Positions 2,640-11,744 of a stretch of 11,957 bases of DNA are shown one piece after another. Every line of letters begins with the position of its first letter. Position 1 is the first letter of the stretch. The stretch lies in UHGV virus genome UHGV-0339357; one strand, 5' to 3'. Under the pieces are notes generated by a model that saw nothing but the letters and a program-made list of their open reading frames with translations, was not told where the DNA came from and ran no database searches. The stretch comes from a virus. The translations under genes and the position numbers were made by a program.

Positions 2640-4227
<1,588 letters not shown>

Positions 4228-4254
4228 AATAAAATGGGCCTTGCGGCCCACTCC
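4228..4254 (-). promoter_or_regulatory. Shine-Dalgarno + GC hairpin (GNRA loop) + U-run immediately upstream of the denA start
   Basis: Minus strand reads TAAGGAG-TGGGCC-GCAA-GGCCCA-TTTTATT-ATG. The 6-bp GC stem with GCAA tetraloop lies between AAGGAG and the denA ATG and is followed by a U-rich run; the nrdB stop TAA overlaps the SD. Confidence 0.5.
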
Positions 4255-5433
4255 TTAAAAATATTTTTTAAAACTCATCATAACTTTATCATCAACATCA
4301 TTATCAATCTGTGCTACAAGGTAAGATGACAGTTCTACTTCTTGCGGCGCGGATTGAACATTATCAGAATTAAGGTATTCACGAATCCAAGGATACGGAT
4401 GTTTAACCGGAGCATCGGTAATCGGGCATGGAAGACCACACTGTTTCATACGAGATACGGTTAAGTAATCAATAAAGCTCCACATGCTATTTGTATTTAA
4501 TCCAGGAACATCGCCATCTTTAAATAAATGAACTGCCCAATCTTTTTCTTGGCGGTTAACTTCCATGAAAATATCAACTGCTTCTTGTTCACACTCTTTG
4601 GCAATTTTAACCCATTCATCACCATCAGTACCGGATTGAAGTTGACGAATAATATATTGTGTACCTTTAAGATGAAGCTGCTCATCACGTGCAATAAATT
4701 TCATAATCTTCGCATTACCTTCCATGATTTCCATGTTCTTATGGAAGTTGAAAGTACATGCAAAGGATACATAAAAACGAATAGCTTCCAGAGCATTGAT
4801 AACGTGCAGACAGAGATAAAGCGACTTCATCAGGTCTCGTTTACATTCTTCCAAATGAGTGAGACTGTTTGAATATGCTTCTAAATCATATTCATTTTCA
4901 GCAAAATAACTAAAGTTTTCTTTGGCGTTTTCCCAAATACGTGTCTTGTCCAGAACATCATCATAATAACGACCAATAGATTCAGCACGTTTCATGATAG
5001 CTTTATCTAATACAATCTCATCAAATACCTTTGACGGATCAGTATAAAGATTTCGCATAATATGAGTGTATGAACGACTGTGAATAGTTTCACTAAAAGT
5101 CCATGTAGCAACCCATGTATCAAGGCTTGGGTCTGAAATCAATGACATAAGTACAGCAGACGGTGCACGACCCTGAATGCTATCCAGAAGTGATTGATAC
5201 TTCAGATTATTAGTAAAAATATTCTGCTGATATTGAGGAAGCTTATTAAACTGTGCAGCATCCATCATTAAGTTTACTTCTTCAGGACGCCAGAAAAATG
5301 ACAACTGCTTTTCGGTTAAATCTTCAAAAACTTTATGACGTTGAATATCATAACGCGCAATACCAAGACCTGAACCAAAAAACATAGGTTCTTTTAAAAC
5401 ATCAACTGGATTTGTATTAAAAACTGTGCTCAT
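4255..5433 (-). CDS. nrdB: Ribonucleotide reductase class Ia small (beta) subunit, 392 aa, uninterrupted
   Basis: Di-iron / tyrosyl-radical protein signatures (SRSYTHI, RDEQLH-type carboxylate-His motif); strong similarity to T4 NrdB as recalled; continuous ORF with no intron-like gap. Confidence 0.9.
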   Translation of the reverse strand: MSTVFNTNPVDVLKEPMFFGSGLGIARYDIQRHKVFEDLTEKQLSFFWRPEEVNLMMDAAQFNKLPQYQQNIFTNNLKYQSLLDSIQGRAPSAVLMSLISDPSLDTWVATWTFSETIHSRSYTHIMRNLYTDPSKVFDEIVLDKAIMKRAESIGRYYDDVLDKTRIWENAKENFSYFAENEYDLEAYSNSLTHLEECKRDLMKSLYLCLHVINALEAIRFYVSFACTFNFHKNMEIMEGNAKIMKFIARDEQLHLKGTQYIIRQLQSGTDGDEWVKIAKECEQEAVDIFMEVNRQEKDWAVHLFKDGDVPGLNTNSMWSFIDYLTVSRMKQCGLPCPITDAPVKHPYPWIREYLNSDNVQSAPQEVELSSYLVAQIDNDVDDKVMMSFKKYF

Positions 5434-5484
5434 AAATTTTCCGCTTAGTTAATAGTTGGTGACTCGTCCGTGAGTCAAATTATA

Positions 5485-7749
5485 TCATAATTTACAGGAT
5501 GAACAATCTTCAGCTTTTGGAGTTTCTATTTCATAATCATCAGTACCAGAACCGTCACGGGTATTATGATAATAGAAATTTTTTCCGCCAAAATACCAGA
5601 AATACAAAAGGTCATCAATCATTATTGACATTGGAACCTTGCCTTTAGGGAAGATTTGGGGGTCATAGTATGTATTCGCCGAAGCTGATTGACAAACCCA
5701 TTTCAGCATAATAGCTACCTGCGTAAGATAAGGTTTATTACCTTTCTTAGCTAATTTCCATGTATAATCATAAAGGTCTATGTTATGCTCAATATTGGGC
5801 ACGACTTGATTAAAGGAGCCCTCTTTTGATTCTTTAACAGAGACTGGTCCACGTGGAGGCTCGATACCGTTTGTACTGTTAGAAACTTGGGAAGATGACT
5901 CACATGGCATAAGTGCTGATAATGTGCTATTACGGATGCCAAAGAGCTTAAGGTCTTCCCGCAGCGACGACCAGTCACAAACGTATTTTGGAGCTGCGAT
6001 TTGGTCAATCTTTTTATTGTACCAGTCGATAGGTAATTCGCCTCGAGACCAACGAGTGTCTGAATAATATTCGCAAGGTCCTTTTTCTTTGGCGAGCTTA
6101 ATGGATGCTTTAATGAGTCCATACTGTAATCTCTCAAATAGTTCATGTGTTAAATCGTTAGCATCTTCATAAGAAGCAAAGTTACTTGCCAGCCAAGCTG
6201 CATAGTTGGTAACACCTACGCCAAGATTTCGACGCTTTTTAGCTTTTTCTGCTTCAGGAACCGGATATCCTTGGTAATCCAAAAGATTATCAAGAGCACG
6301 AACTTGAACTTCTGCCAATTCATTAATTTTATCTTGGTCTTGCCAGTCAAAATTATCTAATACGAATGCAGAGAGAGTACACAATCCAATTTCAGCATCA
6401 GGACTATTCACATCATTTGTTGGAATAGCAATTTCACAGCACAAGTTACTCTGACGAATAGGTGCCTTTTCACGAATAAACGGAGTATAGTTATTCGTAT
6501 TATCAATGAACTGTACATAAATCCTTGCTGTTCCTGAACGTTCAGTCATGAGCAATTCAAATAGTTCACGGGCTTTAATACGCTTTTTACGAATATTAGG
6601 GTCTTTTTCTGCTGCTTCGTATAATTCACGGAAACGGTCTTGGTCTTTAAAATAAGAATAATAAAGCTCTCCACCCATTTCATGCGGACTGAACAAAGTA
6701 ATGTAATCGTTCTTTCCGAATCGTTCCATCATCAAATCATTCAGCTGAACACCATAATCCATATGACGAATGCGGTTTTCTTCTACGCCTTTGTTATTTT
6801 TCAAAACGAGAAGATTTTCAACTTCCAAATGCCAAATAGGATAATAAGCAGTAGCAGCGCCGCCACGAATTCCACCCTGTGAACATGATTTAACAGCAGT
6901 CTGAAAATGTTTCCAAAAAGGAATAACACCAGTATGGCGTACTTCACCCATGCCAATCTTAGAACCTTCGGCACGAATCATACCAACGTTAATACCAATT
7001 CCAGCGCGTTTAGAGATATATTCAACAATCGAAGCGGAAGCCTTATTGATAGACTTCAATGAATCTCCTGCCTCAATAACAACGCATGAACTGAACTGTC
7101 GAGTCGGAGTACGGCAACCAGCCATAATAGGAGTTGGCAGTGAAATCTGTCGAGTAGATACTGCTTCATAAAAACGAATAACATGTTTTAATCTATCAAC
7201 AGGTTCATCTTGATGCAATGCCATTCCAATAGTCATAAATGCAAACTGTGGAGTTTCATAAATTTGACCAGTGGTTTTATCTTTAACTAGATATTTTTCT
7301 TTTAATTGCATCGCCCCGGAATAAGTAAATTCCATATCCCGTTCGTGCTTAATTTTTGATTCTAAAAATGTAATTTCTTCTGCTGAATATTTTGACAATA
7401 ATTCGGGGTCATATTTACCTTCATTTACACAGTAAGAAATATGGTCAATAAATGAACGTGGTTCATATTGCCCGTAAACATGCTTACGAAGAGCAAACAT
7501 TAAACAGCGTGCAGCTACGTATTGATAATCAGGCTCTTCAACTGAAATAGAATTCGCAGCAGCCTTAATGACAATAGTCTGAATGTCATCAGTGGTCATT
7601 CCATCACGGAGATATGATTTAATATTTTCATATAATTCATAAGGATCTACAGATGTTCCTTCAGCTGCCCAAGATAAAACTTTAATAATTTTTTGTGGAT
7701 CAAAGCTCTGAGAAACACCACTACTTTTGATAACATTAATTAATTGCAT
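5485..7749 (-). CDS. nrdA: Ribonucleotide reductase class Ia large (alpha) subunit, 754 aa
   Basis: Catalytic NLCCEI motif and C-terminal cysteine pair (CSSCKL) in the translation; 754 aa as in T4 NrdA; GAGGA Shine-Dalgarno 5 nt upstream of ATG at 7749. Confidence 0.9.
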   Translation of the reverse strand: MQLINVIKSSGVSQSFDPQKIIKVLSWAAEGTSVDPYELYENIKSYLRDGMTTDDIQTIVIKAAANSISVEEPDYQYVAARCLMFALRKHVYGQYEPRSFIDHISYCVNEGKYDPELLSKYSAEEITFLESKIKHERDMEFTYSGAMQLKEKYLVKDKTTGQIYETPQFAFMTIGMALHQDEPVDRLKHVIRFYEAVSTRQISLPTPIMAGCRTPTRQFSSCVVIEAGDSLKSINKASASIVEYISKRAGIGINVGMIRAEGSKIGMGEVRHTGVIPFWKHFQTAVKSCSQGGIRGGAATAYYPIWHLEVENLLVLKNNKGVEENRIRHMDYGVQLNDLMMERFGKNDYITLFSPHEMGGELYYSYFKDQDRFRELYEAAEKDPNIRKKRIKARELFELLMTERSGTARIYVQFIDNTNNYTPFIREKAPIRQSNLCCEIAIPTNDVNSPDAEIGLCTLSAFVLDNFDWQDQDKINELAEVQVRALDNLLDYQGYPVPEAEKAKKRRNLGVGVTNYAAWLASNFASYEDANDLTHELFERLQYGLIKASIKLAKEKGPCEYYSDTRWSRGELPIDWYNKKIDQIAAPKYVCDWSSLREDLKLFGIRNSTLSALMPCESSSQVSNSTNGIEPPRGPVSVKESKEGSFNQVVPNIEHNIDLYDYTWKLAKKGNKPYLTQVAIMLKWVCQSASANTYYDPQIFPKGKVPMSIMIDDLLYFWYFGGKNFYYHNTRDGSGTDDYEIETPKAEDCSSCKL

Positions 7750-8066
7750 AAGTCCTCAACTTGAAAATCGTCTTTAAACAATCGGTTAACTATATGAGCT
7801 ATTATATCACCATGACACGGCTTTGGTTTACATGTGCATCCTAGCCTCATTCCACGTAAAGGCTCTAAATGTGCTTTAGTTATTTCTCCGGATTTAATTC
7901 GACGTATAAAATCTTTTTTGAATAATTCAATGGCAGCCTCCCGGCTGCCAGCATCTTTACCGACGTAATTTCCCCAAAATGTACCACGGTGAATATTAAC
8001 ATCAAAGTCGGATTTATATTTATTCACTACCTGGCATAGACGGCCCGCGCGGTGATAATTCGTCAT
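7740..8066 (-). CDS. Hypothetical protein, 108 aa, with Cys/His-rich C-terminal motif (position of T4 nrdA.1)
   Basis: Minus-strand ORF with ATG start; contains [12 protein letters not shown]; its stop overlaps the nrdA start region; its first 47 nt overlap the upstream ORF. Confidence 0.55.
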
Positions 8067-8283
8067 ATTGTTTTTCCGTTAAAACAGTAATATCATAATA
8101 ACAGTCAGAAGAAATTTTAATGGTGGAAACTTTATTATCAAAATACTCACGGGTCATTTTATGAGTATAATATTTTTTACCATAAATGATAATAGGCTGA
8201 TTTGGTCCTGGAACTTCTAACTCGCTTGGGTTAGGAAGTGTAAAAAGAACAACGTCAGAAGTATCTTTAAATCGTAAAATCAT
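8020..8283 (-). CDS. Hypothetical protein, 87 aa (position of T4 nrdA.2)
   Basis: ORF-track start is TTG at 8295; an internal ATG at 8283 (MILRFKD...) has a GAGGA Shine-Dalgarno at the right spacing, 20 nt downstream of the td stop. Confidence 0.55.
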
Positions 8284-8303
8284 AAATCCTCGCAATAATA
8301 AAA

Positions 8304-9163
8304 TTATACCGCCATCTTTCCTTTAATTAGCGGGTGAGATACATAGTCGTTAAGAACAAAATTATGCGGCTTTGCGAATTGACTCAACCAAAATACCTGT
8401 GATTCTGTGTCCCATTCATCAAATTCATCTGGGAATTTTAATTGTAATTCGCATAAATCCATAGGTTCACGACGCAAAATTTCTTTACATTGTTCTACGT
8501 GATTCATATAGATATGAGTATTACCGCCAGAAAATATCAAATCTCCCGGAATATGATTACATATCTTAGCTACAATATGAACTAACGCAGCATATGATGC
8601 AATATTAAATGGAAGACCGAGGAAAACATCTACTGATCGTTGATACCACTGAAGGTCAAGGTATCCATTACGAACATTAAATTGATAGAACATATGACAA
8701 GGTGGTAATGCCATCTGCTTGAGTTCAGCTGGATTCCATGCTGAAACAATTTGACGCCTATCATTTGGCAGTTTTTTAATACGATCAATAACTTCTATAA
8801 TTTGGTCTACACCACCAAAATCACGCCACTGTTTTCCATAAATTGGACCAAGTTCACCGCTATGGTATCCTAAATCTTTTGCTTGATTTTCGTAATTTTC
8901 ATCCCAAACTGTTTTGCCTTGGATTAACGAATCATGTTGAATTAATCGCAAATCATTGACATTTGTGCTTCCCGATAAAAACCATATTAGCTCAGCAATG
9001 CAAGCTTTCCAGGCGAGCTTCTTAGTTGTTACTGCAGGAAAACCTTTAGTTAAATCCCAGCGTAATTTAGTACCGAACAAAGCAATTGTTCCTGTGCCTG
9101 TTCGGTCATCGGTTTTGTAGCCATTTTCCAGGATATCTTTAATTAAAAATTGGTATTGTTTCA

Positions 9164-9164
<1 letters not shown>
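8304..9164 (-). CDS. td: Thymidylate synthase, 286 aa, uninterrupted (no intron)
   Basis: Catalytic-cysteine motif [11 protein letters not shown] plus other ThyA-conserved blocks; 286 aa from MKQYQ; N-terminal two-thirds match my recollection of T4 TS while the C-terminal quarter differs; start ATG overlaps the upstream ORF stop (TAATG). Confidence 0.9.
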
Positions 9165-10189
<1,025 letters not shown>

Positions 10190-11716: not shown

Positions 11717-11744
11717 AATAAAAAAGGGGACCTCTAGGGTCCCC
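11716..11744 (-). terminator. Rho-independent terminator downstream of gene 32
   Basis: Minus strand reads GGGGACCCTAGAGGTCCCC (7-8 bp GC-rich stem, short loop) followed by TTTTTTATTT, 22 nt after the gene 32 stop codon. Confidence 0.75.

Follow-up and report, generated by a model that had tools for sequence, protein, structure and literature searches.

A probable split ribosome-binding site of the T4 gene 38 type at the nrdB-denA junction of a Tequatrovirus-like genome

Introduction

The only natural translation start sites with a hairpin between the Shine-Dalgarno (SD) sequence and the AUG codon that are cited in two papers, of 2010 and 2020, are those of genes 38 and 25 of bacteriophage T4 (PMC3014915, PMC7297116). 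In these two genes the SD and the AUG lie 22 and 27 nucleotides (nt) apart respectively, distances that are cut to 5 and 11 nt by the intervening structure, and mutations that destabilise the structure lower initiation; the gene 25 arrangement is limited to close T-even phages and is lacking in distant T4-like phages (PMC3014915). The subject here is the junction between nrdB and denA (the gene for endonuclease II) in the UHGV virus genome UHGV-0339357, from which a stretch of 11,957 nt, referred to below as the window, was analysed. The arrangement of this junction suggests that it is probably a split (that is, non-contiguous) ribosome-binding site (RBS) of the gene 38 type, and denA would most likely be the third example of such a split start signal after genes 38 and 25.

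Sequence and spacing of the junction

On the minus strand, positions 4257-4225 of the window read TAAGGAG-TGGGCC-GCAA-GGCCCA-TTTTATT-ATG. The first seven letters (4251-4257), which were identified from the sequence and from the energy of the duplex with the anti-SD, consist of the nrdB stop codon TAA (4257-4255) fused to an SD sequence, AAGGAG at 4256-4251 (with GGAG at 4254-4251), that is proposed to serve denA. There follows at once a hairpin, UGGGCC-GCAA-GGCCCA in the RNA (4235-4250), defined by folding and covariation and having 6 bp and a GNRA tetraloop; its arms occupy 4250-4245 and 4240-4235 and its loop, GCAA, occupies 4244-4241, so that the stem begins 4 nt past the nrdB stop codon. 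A U-rich spacer, UUUUAUU (4228-4234, recognised from the sequence), then leads from the hairpin to the denA ATG at 4227-4225. From the last G of GGAG to the A of ATG is a distance of 23 nt, of which the hairpin takes 16. The spacer UUUUAUU is thus the effective spacer between SD and AUG, and in T4-type phages it is also the U-run of a terminator-like motif. Pairing of the anti-SD with the TAAGGAG of the window is worth -7.9 to -8.5 kcal/mol, no other strong site being present within 45 nt upstream of the ATG.

Junctions for comparison were gathered from 36, and later 59, IMG/VR loci together with GenBank records. Those that bear the hairpin come from phages in which DenA is 60-100% identical to that of the window, and they reduce to 27 distinct junction sequences, all of which share one layout, namely a stop codon, a purine motif, a GC stem with a tetraloop, a pyrimidine- or AU-rich spacer of 6-10 nt, and an ATG. 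The purine motif at the stop codon is SD-like in every one of the 27 (AAGG, AAGGA, AAGGAG or GAGAG), and in nearly all of them an SD containing AGG is found 0-2 nt before the stem; in the first alignment, which comprised 22 junctions, the GG that follows the stop codon, despite being non-coding, shows conservation of at least 90%. The best site for pairing with the anti-SD lies at or just before the 5' side of the stem in each of the 22 variants measured, with energies of -4.4 to -8.4 kcal/mol. Between the 5' arm and the AUG no SD-like site was found in 22 variants, the best there having -3.7 kcal/mol or weaker; the AAGG that spans the loop and 3' arm is weak and limited to the T4-type GCAA loop, being lacking in relatives that have a UUCG loop.

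The linear distance from SD to AUG, 23 nt in the window, ranges from 22 to 28 nt in 22 variants, as against a normal limit of about 13 nt, while the distance from stem to AUG is 6-10 nt in all variants. For the window the effective SD-AUG spacing, with the hairpin subtracted, comes to 7 nt, and 21 of the 22 variants fall within 6-10 nt, the outlier, at 14 nt, being one with a mismatched stem; five further variants match the same pattern of SD, stem and AUG. It might be supposed that the SD is conserved merely by virtue of its overlap with the stop codon, but in one locus (L055, 1420-1500) the nrdB TAA is separated from the SD and lies 4 nt farther from the stem, yet AGGAG still abuts the latter (TAAATTAGGAG-hairpin), implying that conservation of the SD is not a by-product of the stop codon.

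RefSeq T4 (NC_000866, 137517..137951) gives denA as 435 nt and 144 aa, beginning at a GTG that is equivalent to positions 4249-4251 of the window (minus strand), in frame with the ATG. This GTG shares the last G of the SD and otherwise falls within the 5' arm of the stem, so that as a candidate start it would have no spacing to the SD and would lie inside the stem. An in-frame upstream start for denA exists in only 4 of the 22 junction variants, the distance from stop to ATG falling in all three frames. The ATG at 4227-4225 is the sole start that is conserved across the 22 variants, and the 136-aa form that begins with it is the one that was crystallised (2WSH). The GTG is therefore rejected as a start, and the 144-aa start in RefSeq T4 is, to judge from these comparisons, probably mis-annotated. 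The AGG within the GCAA loop and 3' arm, which is annotated as an RBS in phages Ac3 and Ge15, was likewise rejected as the conserved signal, since it is lacking in all the UUCG-loop relatives and is base-paired; automated pipelines that place a 3-nt "RBS" inside the stem are probably wrong.

The GGAG at 4251-4254 (minus strand) was also considered as a strong site for the endoribonuclease RegB, for which the consensus is an intergenic GG*AGRAYARAA (PMC3014915). The motif is formally present, but what comes next is UGGGCCGC, belonging to the stem, rather than an A-rich context, and this candidate was set aside; relatives often have GGAU, GGAC or GGAA at the position of the GGAG.

Evidence for the hairpin

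When a region of 71 nt around the junction is folded the energy is -16.8 kcal/mol (z = -2.9), the core hairpin (4250-4235) has a dG of about -11.6 to -12.2 kcal/mol, and whichever of three sequence contexts is folded, the core 6-bp stem pairs with a probability of about 1.0. The minus strand of the 12-kb window has only two other hairpins as strong as this, namely the gene 32 terminator (11744-11726) and a helix inside nrdA.1. The latter (window 7931-7950, minus strand) is an 8-bp GC hairpin, TGGCAGCC-GGGA-GGCTGCCA, with a dG of about -15.9; it lies within the nrdA.1 open reading frame (ORF), nrdA itself beginning some 180 nt downstream of it. No U-run follows this hairpin, and T4 has an identical one at 142881.

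In an alignment of 26 junctions, larger than the first one of 22, standard pairs make up 96.8% of stem cells, and double-sided changes are seen in four of the six stem pairs: the closing pair occurs as AU, UA, GC or CG, the next as GC or AU, and the fifth as GC, CG or AU. The covariation score is 0.47, compared to 0.16 +/- 0.03 for shuffled alignments (none of 500 shuffles scored as high), registers slid from the proposed one score at most 0.20, and RNAalifold independently gives the same helix. Most variants have the tetraloop C(UUCG)G; those of the T4 type have GCAA or GUAA. From these comparisons the hairpin is judged to be real, and to be kept in relatives by compensatory change. No known RNA family was matched at the Rfam gathering threshold, the best sub-threshold hit being to L20_leader, with 23 bits against the 58.7 called for.

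A search for the same arrangement elsewhere was carried out over both strands of the T4 genome, requiring an SD core of 4 nt and then, after a gap of 0-3 nt, a hairpin with 5 or more bp (dG at most -5), a further 3-11 nt, and an ATG or GTG opening an ORF of at least 40 codons. Five matches resulted, namely gene 25, gene 38, denA and two weak intragenic cases, whereas 20 block-shuffled T4 genomes gave 0.3 matches on average; with the threshold set at a dG of at most -10 there were two real matches (denA and gene 38) against 0.1 in the shuffles. Both of the documented cases are thus returned by the rule, and denA is the single further gene start that it picks out. As for the two weak intragenic matches (NC_000866 52539, minus strand, and 157598, plus strand), these fall at internal in-frame methionines of nrdC.6 and gene 37, and are probably chance arrangements.

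In the preliminary description of the window the letters of the junction (4257-4225) were read correctly to the base. The gap of about 25 nt that it gave between SD and ATG comes to 23 nt when measured, there being indeed no other SD within reach, and the stem it drew is recovered by folding. Its central suggestion, that the hairpin brings the SD and ATG to a functional spacing, fits well with the covarying stem, the retention of the upstream SD, the effective spacing of 6-10 nt, the gene 38 layout and the outcome of the T4-wide scan, and its mention of T4 genes 38 and 25 as split sites is borne out by the literature (PMC3014915).

Proposed mode of initiation and its rivals

The mechanism envisaged is as follows. 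The denA SD, AAGGAG, would be the one that overlaps the nrdB stop codon 23 nt upstream of the AUG, there being none within normal reach; folding of the 6-bp hairpin would leave SD and AUG 7 nt apart, separated by the U-rich spacer; and a 30S subunit bound at this SD would then have the AUG placed in its P site, with the hairpin looped out. As no convincing promoter is seen between the two genes, the transcripts that carry denA probably start within the nrd genes or upstream of them. Ribosomes that have finished nrdB would probably feed the denA site as well, given the overlap of its SD with the nrdB stop codon. In the T4 type, the hairpin with UUUUAUU would also be modestly terminator-like, and any termination there would likely be partial. 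That the hairpin enhances denA translation, that denA is coupled to nrdB, and that there is any attenuation at all, we infer from the features just described.

Several points weigh against a split site, or at least against its simplest form. The junction variants come from related phages, which implies fewer independent covariation events than the counts of stem cells might suggest. In the T4 type the minimum free energy fold (calculated using ViennaRNA) lengthens the stem, pairing GGAG with UUUU by way of wobble pairs; this extension is worth about -4.2 kcal/mol, as against -8.5 for the duplex of SD and anti-SD, and in such folds the probability that the SD bases are unpaired is only 0.00-0.40, depending on the base and the folding window. 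The free RNA may thus partly mask the SD, in which case the hairpin could lower rather than raise initiation. It is also conceivable that the AU-rich spacer alone could recruit ribosomes via protein S1, independently of any SD, and the distance from stop to ATG, which is 29-31 nt in 21 of 22 variants, would fit equally well with termination followed by reinitiation. So far as masking is concerned, the extension was itself considered as a conserved SD-sequestering helix and was rejected: it has no double changes, 11 of 22 variants break one of its four pairs, and it looks compositional. If masking does occur, the hairpin could hold initiation down besides positioning it, and for the gene of a nuclease such restraint would be plausible.

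Lineages in which the split layout is missing are helpful in weighing the alternatives. In Yersinia phage fHe-Yen9-01 (KY593455; L031, 1380-1530) there is a clean 32-nt deletion that has removed the nrdB stop codon, the SD, the hairpin and the spacer, leaving the junction TTATGA, in which the nrdB TGA overlaps the denA ATG (ATGA). On its sequence this phage is a natural "hairpin knockout" with translational coupling. In Krischvirus Ec_Makalu_001 (L040, 1400-1500), and also in L056 and L057, denA follows a different gene and TAAGG, hairpin and U-run are all present, together with an extra 17 nt in which there is a conventional GAGG, 8 nt from the ATG; this layout may be ancestral, or an alternative. 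In Aeromonas phages, Slopekvirus and other distant phages the upstream gene is different and there is no hairpin. Where the split layout is missing, as judged from the junction letters, another initiation device stands in its place, an overlap in fHe-Yen9-01 and a conventional SD in Krischvirus, and among the more distant phages either a conventional SD or overlapping genes.

The direct ATGA overlap to which fHe-Yen9-01 has switched is a classic coupling arrangement, and as such it lends some weight to the view that denA is translated by termination and reinitiation, with nrdB ribosomes moving on by 27 nt and restarting at the AUG, the hairpin and SD-like sequence serving only to tether or pause them, and de novo entry of 30S subunits being negligible. 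That view would also account for the overlap of stop codon and SD in nearly all variants and for the narrow range of stop-to-ATG distances, and, from a consideration of ribosome footprints, a ribosome at the stop codon would be expected to melt the stem. On the other hand, a stable GC hairpin ought to be an obstacle to a scanning subunit and not an aid, L055 parts the stop codon from the SD and yet keeps the SD beside the stem, and gene 38, which has the same layout, is described as a split RBS. Reinitiation as the sole route thus seems unlikely, but reinitiation and a split RBS are not mutually exclusive, and the two may coexist.

The Krischvirus junction bears on a different proposal, in which the hairpin would be an element of RNA stability or processing (protecting the 3' end of nrdB mRNA, or acting as a barrier to RNases), with denA initiating independently of any SD through the AU-rich spacer. 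If this were so there would be no reason for the fixed distances seen, 0-2 nt between SD and stem and 6-10 nt between stem and AUG, nor for the lack of an SD after the stem, and it is just where the spacer after the hairpin is longer, in Krischvirus, that a normal SD is found. Hairpins with UUCG or GNRA tetraloops are admittedly very stable, and this holds independently of any U-run; moreover, Tuerk et al. reportedly found in 1988 that C(UUCG)G hairpins are frequent between T4 genes, which also speaks for such a role. On balance this proposal is highly improbable, and a split RBS remains the preferred interpretation of the junction.

Likeness to an intrinsic terminator

The preliminary description had further suggested that the hairpin doubles as an attenuator distal to nrdB, and here the outcome is mixed. 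A yardstick is available within the window itself: shortly after the gene 32 stop codons there is a canonical intrinsic terminator (11726-11744, minus strand), GGGGACC-CTAGA-GGTCCCC followed by TTTTTTATTT, which was used as a positive control for likeness to a terminator. Like it, the denA element has a GC-rich hairpin and a U-rich run directly after a stop codon, the hairpin being followed by 6 U in 8 nt (where about 5 or more in 8 would be the terminator criterion). It differs in having a stem of 6 rather than 7 bp and a U-run that is shorter, interrupted and not conserved in relatives, and, unlike a terminator, it has a start codon 7 nt past its stem, while no promoter was detected that would belong to the genes downstream. 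On a score of the d'Aubenton-Carafa type, computed with ViennaRNA energies and to be taken as indicative only, the element as found in the window and in T4 reaches +25, and the gene 32 terminator +40. In the GenBank annotations by TAMU-CPT of phages Ac3 and Ge15 a terminator is marked at this point, in one case on the wrong strand.

These observations could be taken to mean that the hairpin and U-run are primarily an intrinsic terminator or attenuator that ends nrd transcripts, with denA expressed from read-through RNA and the GGAG merely incidental. Consistent with this, promoter-like sequence was not found between nrdB and denA (sites resembling sigma-70 promoters are lacking near the junction, as is the late TATAAATA from the coding strand), and nor does the MotA-box pattern occur anywhere in the window, so that denA and the genes beyond it probably do rely on read-through. 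However, among relatives that keep the hairpin the number of U in the first 8 nt after the stem varies from 2 to 7, and most lineages other than the T4 type score at most +6 or are negative; in L033 and L034 the hairpin is perfect but is followed by only 2 U in 8, giving a score of -38. A consensus terminator scan of the window finds no terminator at the nrdB-denA junction, for the reason that the scan extends the stem into the U-run. It must also be remembered that the stem begins so close to the nrdB stop codon that a terminating ribosome would cover it. The tR2 terminator, which lies near a stop codon, is almost wholly suppressed in vivo (PMC4824070), and by analogy termination here is likely to be partial or weak on translated RNA. 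Furthermore, a terminator would leave unexplained both the conserved AGG before the stem and the lack of an SD after it.

Termination as the primary function is therefore very unlikely. What stands of the attenuator proposal is that the T4-type element looks like a modest terminator, and has been annotated as one in two GenBank records; what counts against it is the lack of conservation of the U-run and the proximity of the stem to the stop codon. As far as can be judged from the sequence comparisons, attenuation is probably a secondary property, specific to the T4 type, possibly incidental, and weak if present at all. A literature search brought to light nothing specific on denA translation or on maps of T4 3' ends, although an older mention of the structure is possible.

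A further scheme is a dual switch gated by ribosomes. A ribosome at the nrdB stop codon would melt the hairpin and so suppress termination, letting RNA polymerase continue into denA, and after its departure the hairpin would refold and present SD and AUG to a 30S subunit, whether the same one or another. This is unlikely, but if true it would mean that both transcription and translation of denA are licensed by successful translation of ribonucleotide reductase, and hence that breakdown of host DNA, which supplies deoxynucleoside monophosphates, is linked to the capacity to make deoxynucleoside triphosphates.

Gene context

The window is roughly 99% identical to Tequatrovirus genomes, including those of Shigella phage ESh25, RB51 and T2-like phages, and its minus strand carries in succession the end of gene 32, then frd, td, nrdA (7749-5485), nrdB, denA and rnlA. 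The nrdB coding sequence (CDS; 4255-5433, minus strand) is intronless and encodes 392 aa, as given by the list of ORFs and by the annotation of nrdB in near-identical phages. The denA CDS (3817-4227, minus strand; 136 aa) was identified by alignment with PDB 2WSH, the crystal structure of T4 endonuclease II; the match is full-length (E 1e-85), with three differences that include the E118A mutation, and begins past an N-terminal extra of 7 residues in the 2WSH chain. In its layout the region at 4255-9176 is T2-like: nrdB is intronless (392 aa), td is apparently so, and the spacer between nrdA and nrdB is of 51 nt and lacks mobE and nrdB.1, T4 differing on all of these points. In T4 infection the DenA protein has been detected, and in the RNA classes of the same omics study denA is "middle" while nrdB and rnlA are "early" (PMC9697503 supplement).

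Uses of a probable third split site

A third split site would be useful in several respects, offering as it does a compact hairpin of 16 nt, 27 natural variants, a natural deletion (in fHe-Yen9-01) and an outgroup with a conventional SD (Krischvirus). The denA variants amount to a ready comparative series for studying how a 30S subunit copes with a helix that lies between its P site and the SD duplex. There is also a lesson for annotation, in that split sites of this kind will be systematically mislabelled by gene finders and terminator finders alike. The gene denA is non-essential, and for that reason the practical stakes are modest.

Comparison with known systems

One system that may be compared with the denA junction is thrS of E. 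coli (Sacerdot 1998, cited in PMC7297116). As far as that citing review describes it, thrS resembles denA in that a ribosome-binding region is split by a hairpin that the 30S subunit tolerates, but in thrS the hairpin stands between an upstream single-stranded enhancer and a normally spaced SD, and is in addition the operator for a repressor. In denA, by contrast, the hairpin stands between SD and AUG, and no protein ligand is known.

The junction of T4 genes 26 and 25 (Nivinskas 1999; Malys & Nivinskas 2009) is another. In the account given in the review (PMC3014915), a GAGG lies 27 nt from the AUG, a distance that the stem-loop reduces to about 11 nt. Gene 25 and denA show the same phylogenetic pattern, the arrangement being found in close phages and lacking in distant T4-like ones. 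The two stems are nevertheless unlike in character, that of gene 25 being AU-rich (-6.4 kcal/mol) and lying within overlapping CDSs, whereas that of denA is GC-rich (-11.6 kcal/mol) and strictly intergenic.

The closest parallel is with gene 38 (Gold 1988), the translation initiation region of which reads, in NC_000866, TAAGGAG-AGGGGC-UUCG-GCCCUU-CUAAAU-AUG. Here too, in agreement with what the reviews relate of it (PMC3014915, PMC7297116), the TAA of the upstream gene is fused to GGAG, a GC-rich tetraloop hairpin follows at once, and a short AU-rich spacer leads to the AUG. Differences do exist, in that gene 38 belongs to the late genes and lacks a U-run in its tail, CUAAAU, whereas denA has a GNRA loop and the terminator-like tail UUUUAUU; and for gene 38 the effect of the structure was shown by mutation, according to the review, while for denA the likeness is one of sequence. 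In spacing the two are nonetheless very similar, the distances for gene 38 and denA being 22 and 23 nt respectively when linear and 5 and 7 nt when folded, and one of the denA variants (L036, TAAGGAG-AAGGGC-UUCG-GCCCUU) has very nearly the sequence of gene 38 itself.

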